NCBI GenBank assembly: GCA_043823065.1
Contig: JBDRBB010000008.1
Span: forward strand, 93,643 to 157,642
Direction of reading: 5' to 3'
Length of the DNA stretch: 64,000 bases
From: Pseudomonadota bacterium
GTDB lineage: Bacteria > UBA10199 > 2-02-FULL-44-16 > DYJF01
The notes under the pieces were generated by a model that saw only the letters and a program-made list of their open reading frames with translations, searched no databases and was not told the origin of the DNA. This document shows, in pieces, positions 4,486 through 33,521 of the stretch (position 1 is its first letter; every line of letters starts with the position of its first letter). A program made the position numbers and the translations under genes.

Positions 4486-4899
4486 TTATGCTGTTTGGAG
4501 ATGAGCTTGCTCTTGTTTTCCAAAAACCAAGATCAAAAATAAGATGATGTTAACTACTGGCACTAAAGCTATGACAATTCCCCACCAGCCTGGCTTGCCC
4601 AAGCGCTCACAAATAGCCATCCACAGCAAAATAGCAAAAACCAGATTTACAATGGGAATTAGAAACATGAAGAACCACCACCAGGGTTTGCCGCCAATTT
4701 TTATTACTAGAAAAATATTGGCAATAGGAATTAAGGCCCAGATAAAACTGGAACCCATGGGCATGCCCACTTTTTTGGCTAGTCTAGCCAGGCAATAGGC
4801 ACAAAAAACATAGAGCACGAGAAAGACAATTAGAGAGCCAACTCCCATCCATGGTGATTGCGGTGCCATTTCTTGCACTTGCAAAATTTCTTGTTCCAT
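4486..4899 (-). CDS. Small polytopic membrane protein with an internal duplication (DUF5684-like)
   Basis: Two repeated units: (IPIANIFLVIKIGGKPWWWFF / LVPVVNIILFLIL with GKPGWWG). SD AAAGGGGGA is supplied by the 31-bp repeat just upstream. Confidence 0.5.
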   Translation of the reverse strand: MEQEILQVQEMAPQSPWMGVGSLIVFLVLYVFCAYCLARLAKKVGMPMGSSFIWALIPIANIFLVIKIGGKPWWWFFMFLIPIVNLVFAILLWMAICERLGKPGWWGIVIALVPVVNIILFLILVFGKQEQAHLQTA

Positions 4900-4902
4900 A
4901 CT

Positions 4903-4933
4903 TCCCCCTTTGTTGGTTTTGATAGGTTATATT
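4903..4933. repeat. 31-bp direct repeat, copy 1 (reverse complement AATATAACCTATCAAAACCAACAAAGGGGGA)
   Basis: Identical to 6883..6913. Contains the histidine-kinase stop codon and the SD for the downstream gene. Confidence 0.6.
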
Positions 4934-6114
4934 GGTAATAAAATAACAAAATTAGAGCCCTTGCCAAGCTGAGATTCCAAGTGGATGCTCCCTTCATAGG
5001 CAGATACAATGTGTTTAACAATAGCCAGTCCCAGGCCAGCACCTTTAATATTTCCTGTAAAATACTTGTCTATCTGATAAAATTTATCAAATATTTTCTC
5101 TCTTTCTTCCGGTGGAATGCCAGGCCCGTTATCAGAGATTGAAAGATTGATTTTACCCCCTTCTTTTTTAACGCTAATATTGATTTTGATAATTTCTTTA
5201 TCATTAAATGTTATAGCATTTTCTAAAAGATTTCTTGCTATCCAATTCAGGTGGTTTCTATTTATATTTAGAGTTATATTTTCTACATTCTCAGTGTCAA
5301 ATTCTAGTTTCTTGTCTCTTGCGAATTGACTAAATTCATGAGTTAGATTTAATAAATAAGGTTTTAATTCTATAGCTTCTTTTGTTGTTTCTAATTTTTG
5401 ACCTTCCAGATTTGAAAAACCTATTAGTTTTTCGATTAAATTTTCCAAGGTGTCAGTTTTTTCTTGAATGGTAGTGACAAACTTCATTTGTTTTTCATTA
5501 AGCGCTCCTAATGTTTTGTCCCCTAAGATTTCTATGCTTCCCCTTAAAACTGTAAGAGGGGTGCGCAACTTATGGGAAATAAGATTGATGAAAATTTTCT
5601 TTAATGTTTCTTCTTGGCGAGCCTCTGTTACATTTCGCAAAATCCAAATAATATTGGTAATATTACCCCGCTGATCTTTTAATATGTCTAAGCTGCCTTC
5701 CAAGTATAGAGTTGTAAACTGCTCTGTTTCTTCTCGTACTAAATCAAACTTTTTATGGGGTTTTGAGACATCTAACAACTCCTCCTTACTCATGCTGATT
5801 TTGTATTGGTTAAACATGATTTCCTGTAAGTTAGCATTTTCATAATTTGTTAGGTTTAAATACCCTTGAGCCGTTTTGTTAATAGAAATGATTTTACAAT
5901 CTGGATTGCAGACAATAATTCCATCTCCCAAATTTTGAACAATAGTTTCAAATTTCTCTTTTTCTGCCTGTTCTTTAACTTTTTGTAATTCTGCTTGAAT
6001 ATGTCGTAAGCGTGTAATTGTTTCACCAATTATTTGTTTTTCTTGTGCTAAGAATATTTCTAGACTCTTGGCTCGAAAACGGTATTCTAATAGTTCTATT
6101 TTTTTGGTATCCAT
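4927..6114 (-). CDS. Sensor histidine kinase (PAS plus HisKA plus HATPase_c), no obvious TM segment
   Basis: H-box LISHKLRTPLTVLRGSIEIL. G-boxes SDNGPGIP and GAGLGLAIV. Confidence 0.85.
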   Translation of the reverse strand: MDTKKIELLEYRFRAKSLEIFLAQEKQIIGETITRLRHIQAELQKVKEQAEKEKFETIVQNLGDGIIVCNPDCKIISINKTAQGYLNLTNYENANLQEIMFNQYKISMSKEELLDVSKPHKKFDLVREETEQFTTLYLEGSLDILKDQRGNITNIIWILRNVTEARQEETLKKIFINLISHKLRTPLTVLRGSIEILGDKTLGALNEKQMKFVTTIQEKTDTLENLIEKLIGFSNLEGQKLETTKEAIELKPYLLNLTHEFSQFARDKKLEFDTENVENITLNINRNHLNWIARNLLENAITFNDKEIIKINISVKKEGGKINLSISDNGPGIPPEEREKIFDKFYQIDKYFTGNIKGAGLGLAIVKHIVSAYEGSIHLESQLGKGSNFVILLPI

Positions 6115-6875
6115 CCGTATAATTCCTCCTCAGTCAATTGAGAATCAATTCCACACTGAAGTTTGCTTAAAGCATCAATGCATTTGGGTATCATGTCTGC
6201 TTTGATGATTGAGCCATGTTGGGGCAAGATCATCGCTAGATCTAGCTTGCTGACCCTGGTCATAACTGCGTTTAAATGTTTGTTGCTGGCCATAAAGCCC
6301 ACATGAAAACTTTCCATTTGTTTTTCATATCCTTGTTCAGCATAAAGTTTCCATCCTTTGGATATGGCGCCAAAAATATCAGAGGAAAACAACAACTTCT
6401 GTTTAGCATCGTAGGTCATTAAGGCTGCTGGAAAATGACAAAAAGGAGTAGTTATGAATTTTAGTTGGCGACCGCTTTTGAGAGTAAGAGAATGCTTATG
6501 TTTATCTACCGGATAAATTTCACTTTTTATGTCATAATATTTGATAAGCACAGCTGCGCGTGAGTGGGTCACAATTTTTAATTGTTTATTTGGAATTAAA
6601 TCTTCTAAAAGAGGTACTGCAGCGCAAATATCTGGATCTTGATGATGCAAAACTATATAGCTGACTTGTTGAGGATCTATTAAAGAGAAGATTTTTCCTG
6701 CTACTTTGGGAAACTCCCTGGTCCCAGCAGGATCAAAGATCACTGCTTCTTCTCCATCTATTAATAGATAAGGATTGCAGTGAAAGGCAGCTTGCTCATC
6801 ATAAAAACCAACCCAATATACGCCTTCTACTATTTCAATTGGTTCAAGATAATCATATAATAACTTCTCTGCCAT
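6096..6875 (-). CDS. Metallo-beta-lactamase-fold protein, possibly an ODP-like di-iron sensor partner of the kinase
   Basis: LHHQDPD motif. Overlaps the kinase start by 19 nt, suggesting translational coupling. Size (~260 aa) and context (adjacent to a histidine kinase) resemble stand-alone oxygen-binding di-iron (ODP) proteins. Confidence 0.55.
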   Translation of the reverse strand: MAEKLLYDYLEPIEIVEGVYWVGFYDEQAAFHCNPYLLIDGEEAVIFDPAGTREFPKVAGKIFSLIDPQQVSYIVLHHQDPDICAAVPLLEDLIPNKQLKIVTHSRAAVLIKYYDIKSEIYPVDKHKHSLTLKSGRQLKFITTPFCHFPAALMTYDAKQKLLFSSDIFGAISKGWKLYAEQGYEKQMESFHVGFMASNKHLNAVMTRVSKLDLAMILPQHGSIIKADMIPKCIDALSKLQCGIDSQLTEEELYGWIPKK

Positions 6876-6882
6876 GTTATAA

Positions 6883-6913
6883 TCCCCCTTTGTTGGTTTT
6901 GATAGGTTATATT
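6883..6913. repeat. 31-bp direct repeat, copy 2
   Basis: Identical to 4903..4933. Supplies the SD (AAAGGGGGA) immediately upstream of the MBL-fold gene ATG. Confidence 0.6.
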
Positions 6914-7110
6914 TTACAGAAATTAGAGGCAGGAGAAAAGTAATTAATTTCTAGGCCATTTGTGCTGACAAACCTTTTTTAAGAATATGTTTTTGGATTA
7001 AATTTTTGCCAAAGACAAAATATAACATTAACCCAATGCTAGCCAAGAATATTAATCCAAAGCCAAATCTTGTTTAGGTTGGCAATTAAAACCCCCTAAA
7101 AACCTTAATT

Positions 7111-8952
7111 TTATTGCCTGGTGGCATTTATAGTAAAGGTATACTCATCCATACTTGATTGCTTGGTGCCAGATGCTGTCATGGTATTGCCTGAAATCGT
7201 GGCTGTAAATGGGGCCACATTTGTAACATCAAGATCAAAGAATGAGAATTCATAATTGCCGTTGCTAAGTACTGTGCCTGCTAGCGTGCCTTCAGAGCTG
7301 TGGATGTCTGGTGGACAGCTAAGTGTTGGATCTTCTGACACTACACTCTCTTGGATGTTAGTAAAATAACTTGTTCCAGAAAGTATGCCTGCTTCGTTGG
7401 TTATGGACATCGATATATTGCCGGTGGTGGTATAGGTGCAAACCCATACGCCGTTAAACACGTCAACAATTTCATAGGTTCCAGACCAGGTTTCGGTGCC
7501 TTCTGTGCCGCCTCCTCCATCTGCTGAAACAATGGTCAGAATGATTTCTTCAGATATGCCGTTTATAGTCACGGTTATTCTAACCGTGCCTGGCCCAACT
7601 CCAGTAACCAAGCACTCTTCGTCAACTGTGGCCACTGAAGTATCATCAGCAACGCAGCTATAGAGGAAATCTTCCAGTTCGTTTCCTGAAATGTCATAGG
7701 CGCTTGGTATCAGCTGAAGCAAGTAGCCGTCACATAGCTCATCGCTCTCAACACTTACATTTACGCTGGCCACGGCAGTTGCCGGGTTGCCATTGGCATT
7801 GGCCAAGTCCCAGACGTCGTTAAGCTCAGCCCCACCACCAGCCTCACCAGCAAAAATTATCATGCGGTTGGTTGCCTGGGCATAGGCAATGCCAAGGTAG
7901 CGACGCGCAGTTGGAACTGGATTGCAAACCACATAGGTGCTCCAGGTAGGTGAGGTTCCGCGGGAATCAAGCAATATGGAGACTTCGTTTAATGCTGTAT
8001 TTGAGGCATTAACGCCGCCAAAGACAATCATTCGATCTTGAGTAGGATCATATACTGCGCTGTGACTATATCTGTTTTCAGTTGAAGCTGAAGGGGACAA
8101 ATTGGTCCAGCTAGGTGTTTCGCCTGTGCCGTTGGCATTGGAAAGTACCCACGTATCATTTTTAGAAGATGAAGCAACGCTGGTGCGTGAAGTAGAAGTG
8201 CTGCCTCCAAAAATGATCAAGCGATTGTCTGTTGAATCATAAACAGCGCTGGCCGCAAGCCTGGCTGAAGGTGCTGTTCCAGAAGGGGTTAGCTGTTGCC
8301 AGGTTGGAGCAGTTGTTGCATTGGTGATAAGATAGACATTGTTATACAACGTGCAGGTAGAAGTTCCGCAGGCTCTGCCGCCAAACAAAATAAGCGTATC
8401 ATTTGTTTCATCATAGGCAAAAGCCATTATAGCTCTAGATGAAGGTGCGGTTCCAGCAATAGCTGGATTGGTCCAAACAGGCGCACCTCCAGTGCCATTG
8501 GCATTGGAGAGTAGCCACAGATCCATATAAATTCCTGCTGAGTCAGAACCACCAAAGAGGATAAAATTATTGGCATTACTGTTATAGGCAACAGCAGAAA
8601 ATGCCCGGGCTGCAGGCGGGCCTCCAACTGGAGCTAGCTCTGTCCAAGCAGGAGTGTCAGTTCCTGAAGCATTGGTTAGAACAAAAATATCATTAAGATA
8701 GTTTGTGCCGTCATACCCCCCAAAAGAAATAAGGATGTTGTTGGTTGCATCATAGGCCACGCCTGGCGAATAGCGTTCAGACGGGCTGGTCCCGGTTGGA
8801 GAATGTTGGGTCCATACAGATGCGCAGGTAGCTGTGCTTGTATAATTTAAACAGACAAGTTCACCACCACCAGACCCGCCGCCACCGCCACAACTAGCCA
8901 AGCAGATAATACTAAAACAAAATACTAATATTGTTCTGATCTGTTTTTTCAT
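7111..8952 (-). CDS. Kelch-repeat beta-propeller lipoprotein with a C-terminal bacterial Ig-like (Big_2-like) domain
   Basis: Signal peptide plus lipobox LASCGGGGGSGGG. Repeated motifs (NxLIxFGG, YDxTNNxLIxFGG, VYDSTDNRLIIFGG) typical of Kelch blades. Confidence 0.7.
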   Translation of the reverse strand: MKKQIRTILVFCFSIICLASCGGGGGSGGGELVCLNYTSTATCASVWTQHSPTGTSPSERYSPGVAYDATNNILISFGGYDGTNYLNDIFVLTNASGTDTPAWTELAPVGGPPAARAFSAVAYNSNANNFILFGGSDSAGIYMDLWLLSNANGTGGAPVWTNPAIAGTAPSSRAIMAFAYDETNDTLILFGGRACGTSTCTLYNNVYLITNATTAPTWQQLTPSGTAPSARLAASAVYDSTDNRLIIFGGSTSTSRTSVASSSKNDTWVLSNANGTGETPSWTNLSPSASTENRYSHSAVYDPTQDRMIVFGGVNASNTALNEVSILLDSRGTSPTWSTYVVCNPVPTARRYLGIAYAQATNRMIIFAGEAGGGAELNDVWDLANANGNPATAVASVNVSVESDELCDGYLLQLIPSAYDISGNELEDFLYSCVADDTSVATVDEECLVTGVGPGTVRITVTINGISEEIILTIVSADGGGGTEGTETWSGTYEIVDVFNGVWVCTYTTTGNISMSITNEAGILSGTSYFTNIQESVVSEDPTLSCPPDIHSSEGTLAGTVLSNGNYEFSFFDLDVTNVAPFTATISGNTMTASGTKQSSMDEYTFTINATRQ

Positions 8953-10175: not shown

Positions 10176-11402
10176 ATGAAAAAACCAATTTGCTCTTTGT
10201 TGTTTTTGATCATGTTGGCAGGCCTTGGTGGTTGTTCTGGCCCCTTGCCTTGTGCTGGGATATCTGCTCCAAATCTCACCTGTCTTAGTTCCTTTGAAGA
10301 AGGAGTTCTTTTTGAAACAACCGGACAAAGTGGAGGCAACAAGTTTAAAGTTTTGGTGTTAAATGGAACCTGGCAGGAGATGGGCAGGCAATATGGTTAT
10401 TTGGTTCTAGATGAATTAAATGAATTTTATGATCTAGTGGTCACTGATCATCTGATGAACACTCAGGGTCTTGCTTATGCAGAGATATTAGAATCTGCGC
10501 AACAACTATATGACCAAAGATATGATTATCAAAAAGAACTTGTTGCTGGTTTGGCTCAGGTTCCTACGTTAAGTTTGGAAAAAGCCATGATCATCAGCTC
10601 GCTTATTGATTTGGTCGAGCCAGAAGCAGGTTGTTCTAGTATGGCAGCCTGGGGCGAATATACTGCAGACAGGCCTTTGGTGGTTGGTAGAAACTGGGAC
10701 TTGGCGCCGCCATTTGGCGAATTCAAAAAATACATGTCGGTGGTTGTTTACAATCCACAAGATGGTGTCACCAGTTTGGCTGATATTAATTTTTTGGGCA
10801 CAATTTCTCTACAGACTGGTATAAATAGTCATGGTATATTTTTGGATGTGCAAAATGGATCACACTCAGATCCTACACCGCCTATTGAAGATAGAAGGTA
10901 TCCTACTTATGTATTAGGTGATGTTTTGCTAAATTCTCAGAACATCGAAGAACTTGACGCGCAAATGATGTCAGAGGCTAATCTTCCTAAACTTGCTGCA
11001 ATTATTAATGTGGCTGAACCAAGTGAGGATTTGGTTTATGAATGGGCTACTTATGATGTAAAACAAAGGACAGCACAGGGACTGATTGCTTCGTCTAATC
11101 ACTTTGTAAATCCAGATTGGACTGATTTGCCAGTGGTCGAGCCTGGCGCAGCAGGTGATTATAGCTTGGAAAGGTTGGCTAATCTATTGGCGCTGGGAGA
11201 AGAGTATAAAGGCTCTATTGATGCCACAGTAATGCAGCAGATATTTGATACTTCTTTTGATGATGGCGGCCCAACCTTTTCAGAATATACAGTTTATCAA
11301 GTTGTGGCCAGACCAGCAGGTAAAACCATCTGGCTTAAGACACCTGGCCTTTCTGGTTGGGAAATTATTGAACTTGAATCTCTTTTCGCTGTCTCACCTT
11401 GA
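10176..11402 (+). CDS. Lipoprotein, peptidase C45 / acyl-CoA:6-APA acyltransferase-like Ntn-hydrolase (putative)
   Basis: Lipobox LAGLGGCSG. Candidate autoproteolytic Gly-Cys nucleophile (GCSSMAAWG) followed by GRNWD, which resembles the C45 RNxDW motif. Confidence 0.45.
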   Translation: MKKPICSLLFLIMLAGLGGCSGPLPCAGISAPNLTCLSSFEEGVLFETTGQSGGNKFKVLVLNGTWQEMGRQYGYLVLDELNEFYDLVVTDHLMNTQGLAYAEILESAQQLYDQRYDYQKELVAGLAQVPTLSLEKAMIISSLIDLVEPEAGCSSMAAWGEYTADRPLVVGRNWDLAPPFGEFKKYMSVVVYNPQDGVTSLADINFLGTISLQTGINSHGIFLDVQNGSHSDPTPPIEDRRYPTYVLGDVLLNSQNIEELDAQMMSEANLPKLAAIINVAEPSEDLVYEWATYDVKQRTAQGLIASSNHFVNPDWTDLPVVEPGAAGDYSLERLANLLALGEEYKGSIDATVMQQIFDTSFDDGGPTFSEYTVYQVVARPAGKTIWLKTPGLSGWEIIELESLFAVSP

Positions 11403-13880
11403 GCGCTTGCGCGTGCTGATCATGGCTGGTTTTACGTTCCAAATCTCTTTGGTATATTCCTGAATGGCCCGGTCTGAAGAAAATTTTCCAGAACGTGCGG
11501 TATTAAAGATAGAAATGCTGGTCCATTTTTCCACATTCTCTCTGGTTTGGCTCACCCTTTCCTGACAAGCAGCATAGCTGGAAAAATCAGCAAGCACAAA
11601 ATAAGGATCATCCCAGCGCAAATTTTCCACGATCGGAAAAAAAACATCTTTATCGCCATTGGAAAAATGTCCAGAGGAAAGAAGTGAGAGTGCTTCAGCA
11701 ATTCTAGGATCATTTTCAATAAAAGATGCAGGCCGGTAACCATCATAGCGCAAACGTTCAACCTGCTTGGTGGTAAGACCAAAAAGGAAAAAATTTTCTG
11801 GTCCAACTTCTTTAAGAATTTCGATGTTGGCGCCGTCCAGCGTGCCAATGGTAGCAGCGCCGTTCATCATGAACTTCATATTGCCAGTGCCAGAGGCTTC
11901 TTTGCCAGCTGTTGATATTTGCTCAGAAAGATCGCCGGCTGGATAGATGAGCTGCGCTAGTTTAACATTAAAATCCGGGATAAAAGCCACTCGCATGTAT
12001 TGATTAACCTGAGGATCAGCATTTATTACTTCACCTACAGCTGTGATTAATTTGATAATTCGCTTGGCCATGAAATAGCCTGGCGCTGCTTTGCCGCCAA
12101 AGAGGAAAACTGTTGGTAGTGGCTGATATTTTGGATCGCGTTTTATCCGGCAATACTGGGTGATAACATAGAGCATATTTAGATGCTGCCGCTTATATTC
12201 GTGAATCCTTTTGACTTGCACGTCAAAAAACCAGTCAGGATCGATTTTGATTCCAGTTTGCGTAAACACGTGAGTAGTTAGCTGCTCTTTCTTTAAACGT
12301 TTAACAGCGCGCCACTGTTTTCTAAACTCTGCATCTTTGGCAAATGGCTCAAGTTCGCGCAAGCGCGTAATATCTGTCACCCAACCTTTGCCAATAGTAT
12401 CATTGATCAAAGTAGAAAGTTCAGAGTTACAAACTCTTAAGAAACGGCGGGGAGTGACGCCATTGGTCTTGTTGGAAAAGCGTTCTGGCCACATTTCAAA
12501 AAAATCTTTGAGCACAATTGTCTTGAGAAGTTCAGTATGTAGTTCAGCCACGCCATTGATAGCATGGCTGCCAATGCAAGCCAGGTGGGCCATGCGGATG
12601 CGTTTTGGATCTCCTTCAGCAATAATTGACATGCGACGCACGCGCTCTTCATCACCAGGAAACTTTTTGCGTACCTCATCCAAAAAGCGGCGATTGATTT
12701 CAAAAATAATTTCCAGATGTCTGGGTAGCTGACCTTGAAAAAGAGGCAAGCGCCAAGTCTCCAGAGCTTCCGGTAAAAGGGTGTGATTGGTGTAGCCAAA
12801 AGTTTTAACGGTAATCTCCCAGGCAGGATCCCAATCTAGATCATACACATCAATTAACAAGCGCATCAACTCAGCCACAGCAATTGAAGGATGAGTATCA
12901 TTGAGTTGAACTGCAAACAGATCTGGAAACGAGGTAAGTGGTTTGCCAGACATCTCAATAAAGTGCAGCATGTCTTGCAAAGAACAGGAAACGAAAAAGT
13001 ATTGCTGCATTAGCCTTAACTTTTTACCAACCAAAGGCCCGTCATTAGGATAAAGGACTTTGGTGATTGTCTCTGAGAACATCTTTTCGTGCACAGCTTC
13101 ATAATAATCGCCGGCATTGAAGGCCTGAAAGTCAAACGATTCGCAAGCCTCAGCGCTCCAAAGTCTTAAAGTGTTGCAGGAATTTACGTGATAGCCCAAA
13201 ATTGGTGTGTCATAAGCCATGCCCCGGACCATGTGAAAGGGAATCCAGCGCACGCGAAAGCGCCCATTCTCATCAGTAAAGCTTTCAGTATGTCCGCCAA
13301 TGCCCACGTTATAGGTAACAGTAGGTTTGGCAATCTCCCAAGGGTTTCCATAGCGCAGCCACTTGTCGGTGACCTCAACTTGCCAGCCATCGCGAATCTG
13401 TTGATCAAAAATTCCAAATTCATAGCGAATGCCATAGCCGATGGAGGGACAAGTAAGTGTAGCCAGCGAATCCAGATAGCAAGCAGCTAAACGCCCAAGT
13501 CCTCCATTGCCTAGACCAGGCTCTTCCTCTTCTATCAGAAGGTCTTCTAGTTCAAAGCCAAGATCTTTCAAGGCTGCGCGAACTTCCTGCTCAATGTCTA
13601 AATTGACAATATTGTTGCCAAGGTGAGGACCCATTAAAAACTCTGCAGAAAGATAGCAGGCAACTTTTAGGCCGCGGCCATGATAGGCTTCCACCGAGTG
13701 TCCCCAAAGATGCTGCATGCGGTCGCGCACTGCCAAGGCCAGGGCTTTATAATATTCGTGTTTGGTGGCAGAGGATGGTATCTTGCCAATGGTGTAGGTG
13801 AGGTGGTCTTGCACAGACTGTTTTATAGCTTCAACACTGTTGCTGATCCGGCCGTTTACTTTTGATTTTTGCTCGCTCAT
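11394..13880 (-). CDS. glgP: Glycogen (alpha-glucan) phosphorylase
   Basis: GNGGLGRLAACYLDSLATL and the PLP-lysine signature EASGTGNMKFMMNGA. 828 aa. Confidence 0.95.
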   Translation of the reverse strand: MSEQKSKVNGRISNSVEAIKQSVQDHLTYTIGKIPSSATKHEYYKALALAVRDRMQHLWGHSVEAYHGRGLKVACYLSAEFLMGPHLGNNIVNLDIEQEVRAALKDLGFELEDLLIEEEEPGLGNGGLGRLAACYLDSLATLTCPSIGYGIRYEFGIFDQQIRDGWQVEVTDKWLRYGNPWEIAKPTVTYNVGIGGHTESFTDENGRFRVRWIPFHMVRGMAYDTPILGYHVNSCNTLRLWSAEACESFDFQAFNAGDYYEAVHEKMFSETITKVLYPNDGPLVGKKLRLMQQYFFVSCSLQDMLHFIEMSGKPLTSFPDLFAVQLNDTHPSIAVAELMRLLIDVYDLDWDPAWEITVKTFGYTNHTLLPEALETWRLPLFQGQLPRHLEIIFEINRRFLDEVRKKFPGDEERVRRMSIIAEGDPKRIRMAHLACIGSHAINGVAELHTELLKTIVLKDFFEMWPERFSNKTNGVTPRRFLRVCNSELSTLINDTIGKGWVTDITRLRELEPFAKDAEFRKQWRAVKRLKKEQLTTHVFTQTGIKIDPDWFFDVQVKRIHEYKRQHLNMLYVITQYCRIKRDPKYQPLPTVFLFGGKAAPGYFMAKRIIKLITAVGEVINADPQVNQYMRVAFIPDFNVKLAQLIYPAGDLSEQISTAGKEASGTGNMKFMMNGAATIGTLDGANIEILKEVGPENFFLFGLTTKQVERLRYDGYRPASFIENDPRIAEALSLLSSGHFSNGDKDVFFPIVENLRWDDPYFVLADFSSYAACQERVSQTRENVEKWTSISIFNTARSGKFSSDRAIQEYTKEIWNVKPAMISTRKRSR

Positions 13881-13942
13881 ATTTTCCCAGAAGTTTTAAT
13901 AATAAGCTAGGTCATTATTTTTATCAATAACTACTATTAGTT

Positions 13943-13989
13943 GGTTTGTGGTTTTGATCATTGCAATGTTAAGGTTTTTTTTGGGGGGG
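13943..13989. repeat. Repeat B copy 1: ~40 bp with core palindrome CATTGCAATG and a T8G7 homopolymer tract
   Basis: Matches 18503..18543, where the tract is only T5G4. Lies in the divergent promoter region between glgP and the 14161 gene. Confidence 0.55.
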
Positions 13990-14160
13990 CGATGAGCTGT
14001 CTCGGAATTTTGCGTGTCAATTACCTGACTTGAAAAATATCGTTCAACAAGTAATTTATTACCCCCTCTTTCCAAAATACTATAATTAACAGTCAATTGG
14101 ATGATTTGTTTTTGGCATATAATATGCACAAAAAATTATATGGTATATAAAGGAGATTTT

Positions 14161-14610
14161 ATGAAAAAATTAATTTTTTCCATTTTTGCAACTTTTTTTC
14201 TGATTGCTCTAATGATTACAGAAGTTGCTGCCCAAGGTTTTCAAATTATGATTATTGATAAAGATACTGGCCAGGGAATTTCTAGTGCAACTGTAGATAT
14301 TGAACTTGGTACACGGCCTAAGCTTGGTGATATTTCTGCTCGGACTTATGATTACGAAAAGATTGCCACGTTGTGGACGTTGGATGGATATTTAAATGGA
14401 GTTACAACAATTCCCATTGATTTAGACGAAGTTGCTGAAGAATATATTAGCGTTAGATTAAAAATATCTGCGCCTGGATATAAAACTATTTTTAAAAAAT
14501 GGAATAATTTGAATAATAATTTTATAAATACTGAGCCTGCACCAACGCTGGAAATTGGTTTAGAAAAAATTCCAAAGATCAGAGTATTTCAAAGATTGCT
14601 TGATGAATAA
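14161..14610 (+). CDS. Small secreted protein with a carboxypeptidase-regulatory-like beta-sandwich
   Basis: Start at MKKLIFSIF... (signal peptide) with SD GGAG upstream. Motif GFQIMIIDKDTGQGISSATVDIE. Confidence 0.45.
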   Translation: MKKLIFSIFATFFLIALMITEVAAQGFQIMIIDKDTGQGISSATVDIELGTRPKLGDISARTYDYEKIATLWTLDGYLNGVTTIPIDLDEVAEEYISVRLKISAPGYKTIFKKWNNLNNNFINTEPAPTLEIGLEKIPKIRVFQRLLDE

Positions 14611-14689
14611 ATAAAGGGAAAGTCCTCAACCCTGCAAAATTGATAAAGCTGAGTGGATATTGGGGCTGAAGAAATGACCCAGATTTTGC

Positions 14690-15496
14690 CTATTGCACCG
14701 GTGTTATATAGACATTGGTGCCAACCAGCTTCCAGCCCAAACCTTCGTATATATATTTTAATTCAAATGAAATTCTGGATGGGCGTGTTGGGTAATGCCC
14801 TTTTATGGTTAGAATGCCATTTTTGGATAATGTAGGTTTTTGATCAAACACAGGCGGATAGCTTTCCAAAACAGGAACTATATTTATGTCCGCGTCTGTA
14901 AAAGATTTAAATGCCTGGCTGAACCCATTAACAGACAACTCTTTTTTCCAGGAATTGGAGACAAAATTATGAAATCCAGTAAAATCCTTGTCTCTTACAG
15001 ACACAGCAAATTTCATAAGACTTTCACTTACCAGCTCTATTGCTTCTGATTCGCTAGGAAGTCTGGTGTCTTCATTTTCTTGAAGCAGAGCAGGTTTCTC
15101 AACCAAACCAGCATTTGGTTTGGATATGGAATAGATTTTCCATTCACCTTTTTCTTTTACAAATTCCATCTTGACTGGAACAATTCCATCTGAATCGGTA
15201 ACAACCGACCCTTCCAGAGTTCCTTTTTCTCCTGATATGGAACGATTATCCCAGGAAAATTTTTTGAAATTCATTAAGCTGCTTTTGTTCAAAAATTCTA
15301 TAAATCTGTTCTGAGGGGTGCTTATTTTGAAATCTTCAGATACATATATATAGGCTTTTTGATAATCTCTGTTTTTTAAATTGATAAAAAAACTATCAGC
15401 AGTCTTAACCAGTCCGGATGTAAACCAAAAGACAAGGCTCACTCCTATGGCAGCAATAACAACCAGCCCTATAAGTATAAGAAACACTTTTTTCAT
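14690..15496 (-). CDS. Membrane-anchored protein of unknown function (two repeated domains)
   Basis: N-terminal TM anchor; no recognised catalytic motif. Confidence 0.45.
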   Translation of the reverse strand: MKKVFLILIGLVVIAAIGVSLVFWFTSGLVKTADSFFINLKNRDYQKAYIYVSEDFKISTPQNRFIEFLNKSSLMNFKKFSWDNRSISGEKGTLEGSVVTDSDGIVPVKMEFVKEKGEWKIYSISKPNAGLVEKPALLQENEDTRLPSESEAIELVSESLMKFAVSVRDKDFTGFHNFVSNSWKKELSVNGFSQAFKSFTDADINIVPVLESYPPVFDQKPTLSKNGILTIKGHYPTRPSRISFELKYIYEGLGWKLVGTNVYITPVQ

Positions 15497-15594
15497 ATAT
15501 AACCCCCGGTTTGATTTTTAACACAATGTTACTTGTTAAATCAATTAGGTTATTGAGTTGGGAAGGTGAAAAGGTGGTTGCTTAGGAAATCTAA

Positions 15595-16383
15595 TCAAAT
15601 TATTCCTAACCCGAGTAGCAAAGCAACAACTAGCAAGAGGCAGCCGGTGATTTGCTGTATTGTAATCATGGTTACCTTGTGTAAAAAACGTTTGCCAAGC
15701 ATCACTCCACAGAAAGCTGCAATGACTCCTGATGCAACCAGCCCCACTTCATGGTTATGAGTAATAGCGCTAAAGCGTGCGCCGACTAGAATTGCGCCAT
15801 AAGCCACAAGACGCGCCATGTCCACCAGCAATCCAATGATTGCATTCGTGCCTACAAAGGACTGGGGCGAAATACCAACCTTGGCCAAAAAAGCGGATCG
15901 GAGCGCACCTTGGTGCCCAGACAGACCTCCGAAGAACCCTGAGAGTAGGCCTCCAAGCAAGATCCAGCGGCGATTGATTTCCATTTTGGCAAATCGTGGA
16001 TGCAGTTCAATTGTTGCAAAAACAGCCATGAGCAGGGCTATGATGAGCTTAATTGGTGTGATGACTGCTTGTTTGCCAAATAGTGAATATGTCCAGATTT
16101 CTGTCATTCCGGAAAGAAGTGTGAGTACGTAGACACCGCCGAAAGCTGCAATGATGGCCGGAAGGCCAAAGCGCAACACCAGCCCTTTGTCCGCCATCTT
16201 GCCAAGCAGGACTGCCTTGAATATACCGTTGAAAAAGTGGACAAGCGCCGTGGCCGCAATTGCGATTTCTACAGGAAGAAACAGGGCGAACACCGGAAGA
16301 AGCAGGGTGCCCAATCCAAATCCGGAAAACATTGTCAGACCAGAAGCAAGTGTGGCTGCAACGATGATAAAAATATAATCCAT
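15595..16383 (-). CDS. TauE/SafE (DUF81) family membrane exporter
   Basis: Duplicated 4-TM halves with Gly-rich motifs (SGFGLGTLLLP, GGLSGHQGALRSAFL). Confidence 0.7.
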   Translation of the reverse strand: MDYIFIIVAATLASGLTMFSGFGLGTLLLPVFALFLPVEIAIAATALVHFFNGIFKAVLLGKMADKGLVLRFGLPAIIAAFGGVYVLTLLSGMTEIWTYSLFGKQAVITPIKLIIALLMAVFATIELHPRFAKMEINRRWILLGGLLSGFFGGLSGHQGALRSAFLAKVGISPQSFVGTNAIIGLLVDMARLVAYGAILVGARFSAITHNHEVGLVASGVIAAFCGVMLGKRFLHKVTMITIQQITGCLLLVVALLLGLGII

Positions 16384-16387
16384 AAGT

Positions 16388-16813
16388 TTAGATATCCTGT
16401 AACAGTTCAGAATGTATTTTCCTTAATAGCTTATCTCTTGCAGTTCTAAAGGCGTTGTACTTCTCATCTGTTGAGAATTTAACAACTGCCGGATCTTCGA
16501 TGTTCCAGTGAATCATCTTGCTTCCTGCAAAATAAGGACACGACTCTTTGGCATTATTGCAAACAGTAATGACAAAATCAAAAGAAGCGTTTTTAAATTC
16601 ATCTACTGATTTTGAACGATACGATGAAATATCAATTCCTATTTCCTTCATAACTTCTATTGCGTGTGGATTAACGACTGTAGGATTAATCCCTGCGCTA
16701 AATACTTCATACTTATTACCAGCTAGATGGCGCAGTAATCCTTCCGCAATTTGACTTCTGCAAGAATTCCCCGTGCATAAAAATAAAACTCGTTTCTTCA
16801 TTGTTCTCCTCAA
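16388..16813 (-). CDS. arsC: Arsenate reductase, LMW-PTP family (thioredoxin-coupled)
   Basis: P-loop VLFLCTGNSCRSQIAEG. 141 aa. Confidence 0.85.
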   Translation of the reverse strand: MRRTMKKRVLFLCTGNSCRSQIAEGLLRHLAGNKYEVFSAGINPTVVNPHAIEVMKEIGIDISSYRSKSVDEFKNASFDFVITVCNNAKESCPYFAGSKMIHWNIEDPAVVKFSTDEKYNAFRTARDKLLRKIHSELLQDI

Positions 16814-16829
16814 GCTGTTTTAAACCAAT

Positions 16830-17999
16830 TTATATAAAATATCCAAACAACATCCCGCTGATGGTTGACATAATAACAACCAAAGAAACATAGGCAATGG
16901 TCTTTTGGGTGCCAATCACTCCCCGAATGACCAGCATGTTTGGAAGGCTCAAGGCTGGTCCTGCCAGAAGAAGCGCCAGAGCAGGGCCTTGCCCCATTCC
17001 TGCGCCGATGAGTCCTTGCAATATCGGTATTTCAGTAAGTGTCGCGAAATACATAAACGCACCGACAAAGGAGGCAAAAAAGTTTGCTGACAGGGAATTC
17101 CCGCCTACAAATCTAGCGACCCAACTAGACGGTATGAGTCCCTCGTGATCGGGTCTGCCCAAAAGAAAACCCGCGACAACAACTCCGATAAAAAGAAGCG
17201 GCATGATCTGCTTGGCAAAATTCCAAGAAGCCCTAGTCCAACTTGTAATCTCATCTTTCTTAAACCAACTGATAATCGTGTAGATAAGCACTAAAAGAAA
17301 TGTTCCGGTGATGTACCATTTATATGAGTAGATCAAAGCCCATGTAGTAGAGTCTTCCCCAGAAGGTTTTCCCCAGTTTGCAAAGACCAAAACACCAACC
17401 ATAGAAGCAAAATAGATAATCTCTTTCCAAAAAGGCCGTGCGATTTTTTCTTCAGAAAAAGTAAGATTGCCGCTGGCATGCCTCTCTCTTTCTTCCCTAA
17501 GAAATAAGAAGTGCATCAATAGGCCGACAACCACACTAAAAAGAATCGCGCCGATTGCCCTTGCCAGACCCAGCTTAAAACCAAGTATTCTTGCGGTCAT
17601 TATGATGGCCAGAACATTTATGGCTGGCCCGGAATAAAGAAAGGCAATTGCAGGGCCAAGACCAGCACCTCTTTTGTATATACCTGAAAAAAGCGGCAGT
17701 ACCGTACAGGAGCAAACAGCAAGAATAGCACCTGACACAGAAGCGACGCCGTAAGCCAAGACTTTATTTGCCTTTGCGCCGAAATATTTGATGACCGAGG
17801 CCTGACTTACAAATACCGCTATTGCTCCGGCGATAAAAAAGGCTGGAACCAGACAAAGCATGACATGTTCCTGCGCATACCACTGGGTCAGCGCGAGCGA
17901 CTCGAAGAAGGGTCCACTAAACGGGAGCATTCCAAGTGGAAAAAAATACAAGACGAGGAACACCGCCAACATAAGGATAAATTTATAAATCTCTCTCAC
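16830..17999 (-). CDS. DUF318 / ArsP-like predicted permease
   Basis: CSCTVLP motif, resembling the ArsP-family motif as I recall it. GTG start with SD AAGGGGGAA, overlapping the DUF134 stop (GTGA). Confidence 0.7.
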   Translation of the reverse strand: MREIYKFILMLAVFLVLYFFPLGMLPFSGPFFESLALTQWYAQEHVMLCLVPAFFIAGAIAVFVSQASVIKYFGAKANKVLAYGVASVSGAILAVCSCTVLPLFSGIYKRGAGLGPAIAFLYSGPAINVLAIIMTARILGFKLGLARAIGAILFSVVVGLLMHFLFLREERERHASGNLTFSEEKIARPFWKEIIYFASMVGVLVFANWGKPSGEDSTTWALIYSYKWYITGTFLLVLIYTIISWFKKDEITSWTRASWNFAKQIMPLLFIGVVVAGFLLGRPDHEGLIPSSWVARFVGGNSLSANFFASFVGAFMYFATLTEIPILQGLIGAGMGQGPALALLLAGPALSLPNMLVIRGVIGTQKTIAYVSLVVIMSTISGMLFGYFI

Positions 18000-18325
18000 T
18001 TCTTCCCCCTTGAAGGTACCACCTTGCAACAACCACCTTCAATCTTGATTGCCTTGAGATTTACAAAAGCATCGGTTACTTTTTTGTGTGCAGAGGCTAA
18101 AATCCTTGAGATCGTTGAACGGTGAATTTTCATTTTGCTTGCTACTTCTTCCTGCTTCATTTTTTCAAGGTACGAAAGCCGCATGGCCTCAAATTCATCC
18201 AGTGACAATACAACACCTTCAAGCTCAGATGTCCTTTTACACTTCGGTCTGAAGCAGCGCTCGTTGATATCACATCTTACCCATCGTTGCTTTTTTGGTC
18301 TCATAATCACCTCATGGTATTGCAC
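17996..18325 (-). CDS. DUF134 (UPF0251) DNA-binding protein, putative operon regulator
   Basis: Matches the DUF134 pattern: RPKKxR...F.P...LSLDEFEAMRL...EVA..M...RSTI.RIL.SA.KKV.DA.VN.KAI.I. Confidence 0.7.
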   Translation of the reverse strand: MQYHEVIMRPKKQRWVRCDINERCFRPKCKRTSELEGVVLSLDEFEAMRLSYLEKMKQEEVASKMKIHRSTISRILASAHKKVTDAFVNLKAIKIEGGCCKVVPSRGKK

Positions 18326-18368
18326 CTATGTGCATAACATTTCAAACACAATGGAGTCAACAGCTTAT

Positions 18369-18412
18369 ATTAAGGGATCAAGTCTTGCGTTTCGTGTTTT
18401 GAATCTACTTAT
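18369..18412. repeat. Repeat A copy 1 (ATTAAGGGATCAAGTCTTGCGTTTCGTGTTTTGAATCTACTTAT)
   Basis: Near-identical copies at 20756 and 22158, all in the same orientation. Confidence 0.6.
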
Positions 18413-18502
18413 ATTAAACATAAGATGGAGGAAAATGTCTAAGGGTGTAATTACTTAGAGCTATTTGTCTTTTTGTTCGTCCGTCTTATGAGTTTCTTAG
18501 TG

Positions 18503-18543
18503 GGTTTATGGTTTTGATCATTGCAATGTTAAGGTTTTTGGGG
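18503..18543. repeat. Repeat B copy 2 (palindrome CATTGCAATG core, T5G4 tract)
   Basis: Matches 13943..13989. Lies in the divergent promoter region between the DUF134 gene and the 18642 lipoprotein gene. Confidence 0.55.
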
Positions 18544-18641
18544 AAAAATGATACTTATTTTATAAGTATGAAGTATATATTTAAAGCTTTTATTCAGTAG
18601 GAATTTAAAGTATATTATGTAGTATTCAAAAAGGAGGGGGT

Positions 18642-19772
18642 ATGAAAGTAAAAGATAGGAAATTCTTGTTCGTGTGTGGCATTGTTAGCCTGCTGGCGTT
18701 TGCAGCGTGTGGAGGTGGTTCTAGTGGTGGCGGCACAACAAGTGCGGCCTTTCCAACCAGTATGGGAGTTGATGTGAGCAGCGTTTCATCAGAAGATCTC
18801 CAGAACGTTAATTTTTCAGTGGCCAAGGCAGGCATACCTGACACAGGCACCATGTCCGCGCCCATAACTACGGCTACGAACATGGCAGATCTTGTTACCA
18901 AATTATCTGATCATATGTTTTCCGGAATTGCGGCTGCCTTAAATAGCCAGCTGACGTCAACTGCCACGCAAATAAGCGGCACTGTGTTTGGCGGCACCCT
19001 GAAAATGGATTTTTCAAACTACAATTATGATGTGGATGGAGATGGAGAAAATGATCCATGTTCTGGAACAGCATCAATAACTTCAACACAGTATACTTGT
19101 TTCAGGGCCTGGTTTAATGATAATCGCTTTATGATTGGATATCTTCAAACAGCGCCGACCGCTGACAATTCAGGCAGAGGCATAGTAATTGCGTCCCCTA
19201 CCTTAGTTGCTGATGCCACCCAGGTTGATGCGATTGGTATGGGCAATAATGTAATGACCTACCTCATGTGGGATAACACCGTGGCAGCAGAAAATACTTT
19301 TAACGGCTATATGTCAGGGCAGATGATGGAGGCCCCAGGTACAGGTACGCCAGTAGATCTCACCATTGGCAGAATTGCTGCTAGTTCTGATACAACAACA
19401 GATAAGATTACACTTAGAACAGCAGCCTACTTTGGTACACCGCAACCAGTAACAATCCCCAATGTTGGGGAAGTCGAGGTTGACCAAGTGTTCTTTAATT
19501 CACAATTTATTTCAACCGGCACCTATCTTTTGTTTGAAAATGATTTCCTCTTTCAAGGAGCTGAGGTTGCGGCTGCCCCGAATAACATCTGGTTTTGTGG
19601 TGTTATAGCAACTGGCAATCCGGCAGCTCCTGGAGAGCCTCAGGATACCAGGCTTTGCGAGGGAGAAGGGCTTAGTGCTACCGGCATTGAATATCCTTCG
19701 CTTGCGGCAACTGATGCCTCCAAGACCCAGTTCCCGAACACCACTGTATTTCCTGAAGCCCCGACGTTCTAG
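18642..19772 (+). CDS. Lipoprotein of unknown function with a Gly/Ser linker
   Basis: SD GGAGGGGG upstream. Signal peptide and lipobox LAFAACGGGSSGGG. Confidence 0.55.
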   Translation: MKVKDRKFLFVCGIVSLLAFAACGGGSSGGGTTSAAFPTSMGVDVSSVSSEDLQNVNFSVAKAGIPDTGTMSAPITTATNMADLVTKLSDHMFSGIAAALNSQLTSTATQISGTVFGGTLKMDFSNYNYDVDGDGENDPCSGTASITSTQYTCFRAWFNDNRFMIGYLQTAPTADNSGRGIVIASPTLVADATQVDAIGMGNNVMTYLMWDNTVAAENTFNGYMSGQMMEAPGTGTPVDLTIGRIAASSDTTTDKITLRTAAYFGTPQPVTIPNVGEVEVDQVFFNSQFISTGTYLLFENDFLFQGAEVAAAPNNIWFCGVIATGNPAAPGEPQDTRLCEGEGLSATGIEYPSLAATDASKTQFPNTTVFPEAPTF

Positions 19773-19793: not shown

Positions 19794-19848
19794 AATTCCA
19801 GGGATACGATACATATTCATCGTGTCCCTGGAATTTTTATTTTGTTTG
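19794..19848 (+). terminator. Rho-independent terminator (16-bp stem aattccagggatacga/tcgtgtccctggaatt plus a T-run)
   Basis: Seen directly, 22 nt after the 18642..19772 stop. Confidence 0.6.
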
Positions 19849-19960
19849 TCACCTTTGGAGAAATGTCCAGAGGAAAGTAGCTCAAGCACTTCAGAAATTC
19901 TGGGAACGGTATTGGCTTGTTCGGGTAGCTTTAAATGGTAATTCTGTTGACAGGTTGTCT
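19845..19960 (-). pseudogene. Decayed fragment of an alpha-glucan phosphorylase gene
   Basis: The minus-strand translation ...NTVPRISEVLELLSSGHFSKGDK aligns with resident GlgP ...NDPRIAEALSLLSSGHFSNGDK. About 75-80% nucleotide identity to 11645..11705 by eye. In-frame stops lie upstream and the similarity is lost downstream. Confidence 0.55.
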
Positions 19961-20700: not shown

Positions 20701-20755
20701 GTTAAATCTTATAATATTTACTCCGTCTGACGAATTTAGAGCACTTGTGTTTCTT

Positions 20756-20812
20756 ATTAAGGGATCAAGTCTTGCGTTTCGTGTTTTGAATCTACTTATG
20801 AGTTTCTTGCGC
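20756..20812. repeat. Repeat A copy 2, extended by TATGAGTTTCTTGCG
   Basis: Immediately 3' of the AAA+ ATPase gene. The extension also occurs at 18487, next to copy 1. Confidence 0.6.
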
Positions 20813-22157: not shown

Positions 22158-22199
22158 ATTAAGGGGTCAAGTCTTGCGTTTCGCGTTTTGAATCTACTT
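22158..22199. repeat. Repeat A copy 3
   Basis: Abuts the ATPase start codon (ATG at 22151-22153). Two substitutions relative to copies 1 and 2. Confidence 0.6.
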
Positions 22200-22247: not shown

Positions 22248-22251
22248 TCTG

Positions 22252-22327
22252 GGTGGCTAGAGGGATTTGAACCCTCGGCCTTCTGGGCCACAACCAGACG
22301 CTCTAACCAAGCTGAGCTATAGCCACC
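22252..22327 (-). tRNA. tRNA-His (anticodon GTG)
   Basis: Folds as a cloverleaf with an 8-bp acceptor stem including G-1:C73, which is the hallmark of tRNA-His. Anticodon loop TTGTGGC. T-arm GAGGGTTCAAATCCCTC. CCA is not encoded. Confidence 0.85.
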
Positions 22328-25018: not shown

Positions 25019-25035
25019 AGATGCTGCTACATTAG

Positions 25036-25060
25036 ATTCCCGCTTTCGCGGGAATGACAA
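25036..25060. repeat. REP-like hairpin, single-ended copy (minus-strand TTGTCATTCCCGCGAAAGCGGGAAT)
   Basis: Almost identical to 52299..52327. Lies between the secG stop and tRNA-Leu. Confidence 0.5.
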
Positions 25061-32439: not shown

Positions 32440-33521
32440 TTGTTATTCCCGCGGAAAAACCAGACGGACCAAAATTGGACAGTTGGTGCATCAAAACGCT
32501 ACACCTGTTAGCAACTGAGTCGGTGCAAAAGCCCTATTTTACGCACTTTTTATTTTGGCACGAGGTTTGCTTTATATTTTAGCATGCCCTACTTACCTAG
32601 ATACTTTATTATCTGCGATGACTCCTACTTCCATGTGACTTGGCAATGCCACAACCAAGATTGGCTTCTAAAATGGGATTGGGCCAAGGAAATCTATTAT
32701 AATCTCCTGCGTAAATATAAAGATAAGTATGGAGTAGAAATCTATGCTTATAACTTTATGGATAATCACCCGCACCTTGCTGGTCACTTAAGATCTAAAG
32801 ATGAATTTTCTGCCTTTTTTCGCCTAGTTAATGGTTTATTTGCCAAAGCTGTTAACAAACGCCTTAACAGAAAAGGTCAGGTCATTATGGATAGATTCAA
32901 ATCTCCTAGAATTGAATCTGATAATCATTTGATAAATGTCATGACTTATATTGATCTAAATCAGCAACGAGTAGGCAAAGTAGATCATCCAAAGCAAAAT
33001 ACATGGTCATCTTATAGGTACTATGCATATGGCCAAAAAGATTCTCTGATTACCCCTTCACCTTCATATTTACTATTAGGAAGAACACCAACAGAGAGGC
33101 AAAATGAATATAGGAGATTAGTTGAGGGATTAATTGGAAATGACAAAGAAATAAATATATCTAAAACCTATTTCATAGGAAACCCAGATTGGGTAATTGC
33201 CAGATACAAAGAGTATAGAATTTTGTGGAAGACTGTCTATATCAAGCAAGGCCTATCCAATGCTAATTCTCCGCCAGGATAGCAAAAAAAGCAAGCAAGC
33301 GTGCAGTTTAATTTGAGAAATTAAGGATTTGATTGTAGAGCTGTATCCAAATTTAGCCAAATTCAAAAAAAATACCAAAATACAAATCGACAAGCGAAAA
33401 TTTAGTTTTGCAAGAGAGGTTTGCAAGTTTCAGATATTTGTAAATTGCCAATCAAATACAAAGTTGAGCAACTTTTATTCAAAAACTAATCAATAAGTAA
33501 AAATTGGTCCGTCTGAGTTTC
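32440..33521 (+). mobile_element. IS200-like / RAYT-like element: HuH transposase gene flanked by 12-bp inverted repeats, with a REP half-site at the left end
   Basis: Left end has TGTTATTCCCGCGG, a REP-like half hairpin. Inverted repeats are cagacggaccaa (32461-32472) and ttggtccgtctg (33505-33516). Confidence 0.4.
32584..33282 (+). CDS. HuH Y1 transposase-like protein (IS200/Transposase_17 fold; REP-associated tyrosine transposase-like)
   Basis: HuH motif MDNHPHLAGHL. YIDLNQQRV (similar to the YIxxNPV motif) and a Tyr-rich region SSYRYYAY. 232 aa. Confidence 0.55.
   Translation: MPYLPRYFIICDDSYFHVTWQCHNQDWLLKWDWAKEIYYNLLRKYKDKYGVEIYAYNFMDNHPHLAGHLRSKDEFSAFFRLVNGLFAKAVNKRLNRKGQVIMDRFKSPRIESDNHLINVMTYIDLNQQRVGKVDHPKQNTWSSYRYYAYGQKDSLITPSPSYLLLGRTPTERQNEYRRLVEGLIGNDKEINISKTYFIGNPDWVIARYKEYRILWKTVYIKQGLSNANSPPG

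Follow-up and report, generated by a model that had tools for sequence, protein, structure and literature searches.

Homopolymers in the spacer of a promoter are an established type of expression switch in Neisseria, Bordetella and Campylobacter, and in the known promoter switches a long homopolymer lies between the −35 and −10 hexamers. The repeat described here shares with such phase-variable promoters (porA and opc in Neisseria, fim in Bordetella, the poly-G loci of Campylobacter) an intergenic tract ahead of genes that encode surface or exported proteins and a tract length that varies among copies. It differs from them in that its tracts are short and mixed, the tract of its longer copy is not bracketed by recognizable −35 and −10 elements, and the window, by which we mean the entire 64-kb stretch of DNA analyzed, is not rich in SSRs. 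The organism, moreover, is an uncultured environmental MAG rather than a host-adapted pathogen.

A second group of related systems comprises the att repeats of tRNA-linked islets that use a tyrosine integrase, together with Campbell-type insertions. With these the locus has in common direct repeats of about 45 bp that bound a 4.5-kb block within a mosaic on the side of a tRNA gene, as well as differences between copies that are confined to their outer ends; in contrast to them, it has no recombinase gene, tRNA overlap or compositional contrast. REP/BIME elements, MITEs and integron attC sites are likewise short intergenic repeats with sharp boundaries, but the module described here is without a stable hairpin, terminal inverted repeats or a target-site duplication, and is present in only two to three copies in 64 kb. 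The window does contain a RAYT-like Y1 transposase gene, at 32584-33282.

The module also bears a superficial likeness to the −24/−12 promoters of sigma-54, in which GG and GC doublets are exactly 10 nt apart (TGGCACG-N4-TTGCW). Its segment TGGTTTTGATCATTGCA recalls TGGCACG-N4-TTGCA, yet the spacing from GG to GC in the module is 11 nt rather than the invariant 10, and the version at an orthologous locus (L010, described below) has no GC at that place. We therefore rejected a sigma-54 promoter inside the module, since the spacer in GG-TTTTGATCATT-GC has 11 nt. True sigma-54 consensus sites in the window have the 10-nt spacer, as exemplified by a perfect TGGCACGAGGTTTGCT at 32556-32571.

A two-copy intergenic repeat with a variable T/G tract

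The motif TTAGTKGGTTTRTGGTTTTGATCATTGCAATGTTAAGG-Tn-Gn occurs in two intergenic regions between divergent genes, at 13937-13989 (copy A) and 18497-18543 (copy B), both on the plus strand. This agrees with the first-pass annotation, except that the left end of the repeat lies 6 nt to the left of position 13943, where the earlier account had placed it. Copy A consists of TTAGTTGGTTTGTGGTTTTGATCATTGCAATGTTAAGG followed by T8 and G7 (the tract spans 13975-13989, plus strand), and copy B of TTAGTGGGTTTATGGTTTTGATCATTGCAATGTTAAGG followed by T5 and G4 (18535-18543, plus strand); the two tract lengths, likewise reported earlier, are read directly from the sequence. Copy A is separated by 56 nt from the start codon of its left neighbor, glgP (11394-13880, minus strand), and by 171 nt from the ATG of its right neighbor downstream, gene 14161 (14161-14610, plus strand), which encodes a 149-aa protein with a signal peptide. 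Copy B lies 171 nt from the start of the DUF134 ORF on its left (17996-18325, minus strand), which encodes an HTH protein and heads a cluster with genes for an ArsP-type permease, an LMW phosphatase/ArsC-like protein and TauE. On its right, 98 nt downstream, is the ATG of the lipoprotein gene 18642 (18642-19772, plus strand, 376 aa). The two copies are thus 4.5 kb apart, each ahead of a gene for an exported protein. The lipoprotein is 100% identical to ABH859_03355 and the 149-aa protein 100% identical to ABH859_03325, both of a Pseudomonadota bacterium MAG.

The ungapped parts of copies A and B are identical at 41 of 43 positions, with both substitutions within the left 12 nt, and alignment shows their flanks to be unrelated on both sides. 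The 25-mer GGTTTTGATCATTGCAATGTTAAGG occurs exactly twice in the window against an expectation of 0.00, and none of 100 shuffles yielded a second copy. The repeat is real and non-random. In the 64 kb, BLAST and repeat searches found no other full-length copy, and our count of module copies refers to this window. The 20-mer had no match in a collection of genome contigs. Five matches to the 19-mer in metagenome contigs had unrelated flanks, as expected by chance, and a relaxed form of the core gave 61 matches in genome contigs and 30 in viral contigs, all unrelated. A BLAST search of plasmids returned no relevant match.

We found no sign that the module acts through a folded nucleic acid. At the gathering threshold, only two tRNAs in the window match Rfam, and a permissive Rfam scan of 13800-18800 gave nothing at either copy. 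When both strands of the module were folded as RNA and as DNA, z-scores ranged from −1.1 to +1.4, indicating no significant structure, and the minus strand is essentially unstructured. With no terminator-like site, significant fold or Rfam match, an intrinsic terminator or structured RNA was rejected, as was a single-stranded DNA hairpin of the attC, REP or IS200 type, for which no hairpin was found. A dif/Xer site was also set aside by inspection: ATGTTAA is similar to the XerD arm of dif, but the module has no second arm and lacks the 11-6-11 symmetry. The lack of a structured RNA or DNA signal favors an element that is bound by protein as duplex DNA.

Each copy contains the 10-bp perfect palindrome CATTGCAATG (13959-13968 in copy A and 18519-18528 in copy B), which had been interpreted as the site of a dimeric regulator. 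The palindrome is present as described, and by inspection the dyad can be extended imperfectly to 18 bp with 14 of 18 positions matching, but the interpretation is not supported. Perfect 10-bp palindromes number 91 in the window against a mean of about 78 in shuffles, a frequency near chance, which here amounts to roughly one per 700 bp. Beyond copies A and B, CATTGCAATG is absent from the 64-kb window, and no intergenic site matches it with one mismatch or fewer. At the orthologous locus L010 the half-site CAATG is kept, whereas the left half-site CATTG is replaced by GGG (GGGCAATG there). With the left half unconserved at this locus and no recurrence of the site at another promoter in the window, a palindromic operator for a dimeric regulator finds no support.

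The tract itself is unusual chiefly in its combination of runs. No mixed tract in the window is longer than T8G7, whose G7 is both the longest G run and the sole G/C run of at least 7, while T8 is one of four such runs, about as many as composition predicts. Each run taken singly is near its composition-predicted frequency, with only their juxtaposition standing out, and the window holds no other SSR loci. The PhasomeIt cut-offs for phase-variable tracts are at least 7 for G/C and at least 10 for A/T (PMC6321876). Measured against these, the G7 of copy A is at the limit and its T8 below, and the G4 and T5 of copy B both fall far short.

The first-pass annotation had proposed the tract as a candidate slipped-strand phase-variation switch that affects spacing for the expression of glgP or the lipoprotein gene. 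On such a reading, the length of the tract would alter promoter geometry and so toggle glgP, 14161 or the lipoprotein gene. Besides the size of the tract in copy A, this proposal can draw on the precedent of promoter-spacer switches elsewhere and on the variation of the tract, which is T8G7 in copy A, T5G4 in copy B, T5AG5 at a probable third site and T5G in L010. At copy B, inspection also reveals a sub-threshold pair, TTGCAA-17-AAAAAT (8/12), with the tract as its 17-nt spacer. At copy A, however, no −35/−10 pair brackets the tract, and a sigma-70 consensus scan found no pair spanning it at either copy. If the conserved TGnTAAGRT is a −10 element, the tract would lie downstream of it, with little influence on the spacing of the hexamers. 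The absence of other SSR loci sets the window apart from genomes that depend on such switching, and the L010 locus has the same tract in both of its assemblies. In the consensus of a MAG, moreover, homopolymer lengths may be assembly errors. A T8G7 string in a relative (L001) proved to lie inside a poly-G/N scaffold artifact and is not homologous. With tract lengths that are marginal and a promoter pair that is weak at one copy and missing at the other, we regard a switch as highly improbable. The differing lengths among copies imply that the tract has changed by slippage during evolution. Such change is ordinary slippage, and the difference between A and B appears to reflect an indel that has become fixed, not an active switch.

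The right-hand core and nearby promoter signals

The family of the lipoprotein encoded by 18642 is rare: of 5.8 billion proteins, 11 belong to it. We compared the upstream regions of five orthologous genes (L009, L010, L012, L013 and L076) and found the core only in L010, at what we call the L010/L011 locus. The ortholog at this locus (P0125) has 61% protein identity, and its upstream region reads GGTTTTG-N8-GCAATGTTAAGATTTTTG, ending 30 nt before the ATG. The match is to the right half of the module, GCAATGTTAAGRTTTTTG, and the agreement at 17 of 18 positions was equaled in none of 2000 shuffles. CCAATGTTAGCGGTTTTGG recurs 26 nt upstream of this core, and TGATCATTG is found 130 nt upstream. 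In the other four upstream regions, matches to the core were at chance level in the shuffle test. They include that of L009, whose protein is closer (66%) and yet has no significant core upstream; GATCATTG in this region was rejected as a copy because 271 of 2000 shuffles were as good. The motif is also absent upstream of the nearest glgP homologs (81-83% identical). Because only the right half is kept in L010, the constrained (or gene-travelling) part of the module would be GCAATGTTAAG-R-TTTTTG.

A partial third copy of this right-hand core is present on the minus strand at 7092-7117 (GCAATAAAATTAAGGTTTTTAGGGGG). Its core, TTAAGGTTTTTAGGGGG, runs from 7108 to 7092, preceded by GCAAT (from 7117), and it keeps TTAAGG-T5-A-G5. 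The site begins within and just past the stop codon of a Kelch-repeat gene (7111-8952, minus strand). An ODP/metallo-beta-lactamase gene (start at 6875, minus strand) follows 216 nt downstream, and the site has the same orientation relative to this downstream gene as the other copies. The pattern TTAAGGTTTTTN{0,3}GGGG finds three sites in the window (A, B and the third) against an expectation of 0.00. Since this pattern was chosen post hoc, and the site did not stand out in a general local-alignment test, we consider it a probable rather than a certain third copy.

All four instances (A, B, the third site and L010) lie upstream of the next gene and are oriented toward it, at distances from core to start codon that span 30 to 216 nt. 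The presence of the tract in the right-half matches places it within the conserved core, and a T run of 5 in three of the four instances suggests T5 followed by G as the ground state, with T8G7 of copy A as an expansion. Tiny ORFs of 13, 5, 3 and 1 codons begin 2-6 nt past the G run or T run in the four instances, an observation made post hoc on peptides that are unconserved, and one to which we give no weight.

Among known promoter types, the core resembles an extended −10 (TGn) promoter of sigma-70. The sequence TGTTAAGGT (TGTTAAGAT in L010) keeps the TG together with T−12, A−11 and T−7, oriented to the downstream gene, and AATGTTA occurs at the TG-extended −10 of two more predicted promoters, those of the ODP gene (7046-7019) and the DUF134 gene (18341-18335). 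Unlike such promoters, the module has no −35 element, with no acceptable hexamer 16-18 nt upstream of TAAGGT; its third copy is without the TG, and it lies at widely differing distances from the start codon. Nor is the signature enriched, as TGnTAnnnT upstream of genes in the window numbers 6 against 9.5 in shuffles. A FliA (sigma-28) promoter was also considered and rejected: TAAGGTTT approximates TAAAGTTT, but the −10 element and spacing are loose at copy A and fail at copy B, the third copy and L010. The window contains no flagellar genes. By eye, no convincing match to the Fur, Zur, FNR or IHF consensus was seen in the module.

Both neighbors of copy A have promoter-like sites of their own. 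A sigma-70-like promoter for glgP, TTGATA-17-TATTAT (10/12), is predicted at 13899-13927 on the minus strand, with its −35 hexamer 9 nt from the left edge of the module. Proximal to gene 14161 is a sigma-70-like site, TTGGCA-16-AATTAT, at 14112-14139 (plus strand), in a region that is conserved in L075, the contig of an 85%-identical ortholog. Given this conserved proximal site, module A would not be needed as the core promoter of 14161. Overlapping it at 14113-14128 (plus strand), 33 nt before the ATG and also conserved in L075, is a sigma-54-like sequence, TGGCATATAATATGCA, with the correct GG-N10-GC spacing.

This last site raises another way in which the module could act, as an enhancer whose dyad TTGATCATTGCAATGTTAA binds a bEBP dimer and activates a downstream −24/−12 promoter. 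Module A is located 125-175 bp upstream of TGGCATATAATATGCA, at the distance usual for enhancers; the window also encodes three tandem sigma-54-dependent response regulators, besides the perfect consensus site at 32556-32571. The arrangement is, however, particular to copy A, as inspection found no GG-N10-GC between copy B and the lipoprotein gene or after the L010 and third copies. Sigma-54 consensus matches with three mismatches occur at chance in any case (95 against 101 expected), the stretch 14112-14139 scores as a sigma-70 promoter as well, and the left half of the dyad is unconserved in L010. We judge an enhancer role to be improbable.

Recombination in the mosaic region beside tRNA-His

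The 8-kb region from glgP to the tRNA-His gene (22251-22326, minus strand), which bounds it, is a mosaic with several other short repeats. One of these, D3 (ATTAAGGGATCAAGTCTTGCGTTTCGTGTTTTGAATCTACTTAT, 45 nt), is found at 18368-18412 (plus strand), again at 20755-20799 with 100% identity to the first copy, and a third time at 22158-22199 with 95% identity, about 50 nt from the 3' end of tRNA-His. A search of viral contigs for D3 gave a single chance match, in coding sequence. The 14-mer CTTATGAGTTTCTT at 18485-18498 (plus strand) is identical to 20795-20808. At 20755-20808, D3 and CTTATGAGTTTCTT are contiguous, whereas near copy B a 72-nt insert bounded by CTTAT splits them. On the CTTATGAGTTTCTT side, homology stops at 18498, precisely at the beginning of copy B, so that the left edge of the module is a breakpoint in two independent comparisons; 18498 marks a recombination junction at that edge. 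A resemblance of the left half of the module to D10, a 31-nt repeat (TTTGTTGGTTTTGAT), was dismissed as a 10-mer-level match of chance frequency. At 19845-19904 (minus strand), a 20-codon remnant of a second glgP, PRISEVLELLSSGHFSKGDK, matches residues 725-744 of the resident enzyme with 80% identity and shows past rearrangement in the region. Clearly, this region is prone to recombination.

No relative that we examined has synteny around glgP or the lipoprotein gene, and in the close relative L075 homology is lost directly past the stop codon of the 14161 ortholog (85% identical protein). In L009, another MAG, the lipoprotein ortholog is located 2.5 kb from tRNA-His, beside a serine recombinase and defense genes.

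One rival reading sees the module as a recombination scar or an att-like site of crossover. The 4.5-kb block between the copies (13990-18496) would have entered as a circle when one crossover, whether site-specific or homologous in the manner of Campbell, took place within the module, leaving the module duplicated as flanking direct repeats with no role of its own at A. Copies A and B do flank a discrete segment, as repeats at island boundaries do, and the genes between them form a coherent block. Differences between the copies are limited to two SNPs at the left end and the tract at the right end, and the 30 nt in between are identical. A crossover midway through two parental modules that differed slightly would give this pattern. 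The T5G4 nearest to the lipoprotein gene agrees with the T5 of L010 and of the third copy. Joining the ends of the block also yields a sensible divergent intergenic region (171 nt, the module and another 171 nt). To these can be added the independent breakpoint at the left edge of copy B, the position of the region against tRNA-His with other direct repeats and a gene remnant inside, and the L009 ortholog near its own tRNA-His and serine recombinase.

Other observations weigh against such a scar. No integrase or recombinase is encoded in or beside the block: none of the genes from 9.3 to 26.3 kb has a Pfam match to an integrase, a resolvase or a transposase. The tetranucleotide distance of the block, 19.0, is typical of the 15-29 range for other 4-kb windows. 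The module has neither the 11-6-11 architecture of dif nor a hairpin, and no empty site is visible among the relatives examined, none of which conserves the synteny. On balance we consider the scar a possible explanation, though not the likeliest one. It requires that the module already existed in both recombining partners, and in this sense it complements rather than replaces a regulatory role.

A more speculative scheme would make the module and the D3 repeats the recombination sites of an undescribed cassette system, served by a recombinase in trans, that shuffles small gene blocks beside tRNA-His, with the module doubling as an outward-facing promoter. The blocks envisaged are lipoprotein genes, a DUF4143 ATPase and the DUF134-ArsP block. 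If true, such a system would account for the sharp edges of the module and its direct orientation, for breakpoints that coincide, and for the loss of synteny at the lipoprotein locus in relatives, but we consider it a long shot.

A candidate duplicated cis-regulatory module

The explanation that we prefer, and put forward tentatively, is a promoter-proximal cis-regulatory module of about 45 bp that is native upstream of the lipoprotein gene and was duplicated by recombination. The upstream position of the copies, their shared orientation and the 18-nt core at the 61%-identical ortholog make a regulatory role plausible. This much of the earlier proposal of a promoter-region element stands, while its dimeric palindrome and its switch are not supported. 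From these features we infer a role in transcription initiation or regulation. Several observations count against a regulatory module. The core is found at only one of five ortholog upstream regions, its distance to the start codon varies, it has no acceptable −35 hexamer and its TGnTAnnnT signature is not enriched upstream of genes, and gene 14161 has a conserved proximal promoter-like site of its own. The identity of A and B may, moreover, reflect no more than a recent duplication, as other repeats in this region are 95-100% identical.

We also infer which copy is ancestral. The module would be native upstream of the lipoprotein family that 18642 represents, and recombination would have placed the second copy upstream of gene 14161, in a mosaic of short duplicated intergenic modules on the tRNA-His side. 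Equivalently, insertion of the 4.5-kb block may have used the module as its crossover homology. The functionally constrained part would be the right half, GCAATGTTAAGG-T5-GGGG, read toward the downstream gene. This part may comprise TGnTAAGRT as an extended −10-like element, with a T-rich discriminator after it and a start region in the G run; alternatively, it may be the binding site of a factor that recognizes CAATGTTA. As a putative factor-binding site, CAATGTTA occurs as a direct repeat in L010 and as an inverted one in the window, and this assignment fits equally well as the extended −10. The ground state of the tract would be T5 then G, from which copy A would derive by slippage (+3 T, +3 G).

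Through RecA-dependent recombination between the two 43-nt direct repeats, the 4.5 kb that separates them could be deleted or amplified; this stretch holds gene 14161 and the DUF134-ArsP-LMW-phosphatase-TauE cluster. Direct repeats in this arrangement make the block, which is of arsenic/redox type, prone to deletion or amplification. Neither a portable module nor a repeat-prone block would surprise a specialist. If the module is indeed a portable promoter or operator, it would mark a small set of co-regulated genes for exported proteins in an uncultured lineage, and would also illustrate how recombination copies regulatory DNA between loci.

Repeats and remnants around the lipoprotein genes

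In the region bounded by the tRNA-His gene (22251-22326, minus strand), we observed a second family of 45-nt direct repeats, D3 (ATTAAGGGATCAAGTCTTGCGTTTCGTGTTTTGAATCTACTTAT), with copies at 18368-18412, 20755-20799 and 22158-22199 that share 95-100% identity. Near the tRNA, D3 copies delimit a block of 2.4 kb holding two genes for lipoproteins and another of 1.4 kb with a DUF4143 AAA ATPase. We found no hairpin in D3 and no match to it in Rfam or among viral sequences. Its 11-mer TATTAAGGGAT recurs at a gene boundary (positions about 575-585) in L075, the related contig that carries an 85%-identical ortholog of gene 14161.

A second glgP gene survives as a 20-codon fragment between the two lipoprotein genes (19845-19904, minus strand); the fragment shares 80% identity with the intact glgP (11394-13880) at residues 725-744. 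An AT-rich 19-bp palindrome, ATACTTAT-TTT-ATAAGTAT (18551-18569), is situated between module copy B and the lipoprotein gene; it is found at that site only, and its dyad is better formed than that of the module's 10-bp palindrome.

In L009, the MAG locus whose lipoprotein ortholog is 66% identical, the gene for a large serine recombinase (4910-6427) overlaps the end of tRNA-His and is preceded by ThsB-TIR and restriction-modification genes, an arrangement suggestive of the integration of a defence island at tRNA-His.

Matches in other organisms

The 18-mer GCAATGTTAAGGTTTTTG was found in three Flavobacterium loci (L040, L053 and L069) and in three loci from Spirosomataceae and relatives (L028, L045 and L060). 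In these two Bacteroidota groups it is embedded in longer stretches conserved across genera, and in one of them it occupies the loop of TTGAGA…TCTCAA. The sequences flanking the 18-mer in the Bacteroidota loci bear no relation to its flanks in the window, and the stretches bearing it in L040 and L028 gave no Rfam match at the gathering threshold.

We rejected as spurious a T8G7 match in the relative L001. The match derives from about 6080-6200, where a run of Ns has long poly-G/poly-T on either side (…GGGGGTTTTTTTTTGGGGGGGGGGGGGGGGGGGGGG…) and which has the appearance of a poly-G artefact of scaffolding or two-colour chemistry.

Sigma-54-related features

The segment 37397-42805 carries a histidine kinase gene and, after it, a tandem series of three paralogous genes for sigma-54-dependent response regulators (38595-39977, 39974-41419 and 41432-42805), to which repeat families D1 and D2 are due. 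The sequence TGGCACGAGGTTTGCT (32556-32571) matches the sigma-54 consensus perfectly (0 mismatches) and precedes by 13 nt a gene (32584-33282) whose product weakly matches the REP-associated tyrosine transposase (RAYT/Y1 transposase; E 7e-12, under the curated cut-off). A transposase-like gene driven by sigma-54 would be unusual.

Other short repeats

A 28-nt inverted pair, 96% complementary (25033-25060 and 52300-52327), is REP-like or terminator-like; both members contain the hairpin TTCCCGC-NNNN-GCGGGAA, and one adjoins tRNA-Leu. The 31-nt sequence TCCCCCTTTGTTGGTTTTGATAGGTTATATT is present in two copies with 100% identity (4903-4933 and 6883-6913); read on the minus strand, these serve two genes, 4486-4899 and 6096-6875, as 5' leader and Shine-Dalgarno region. 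This repeat is a further case of duplicated regulatory DNA in the source genome.
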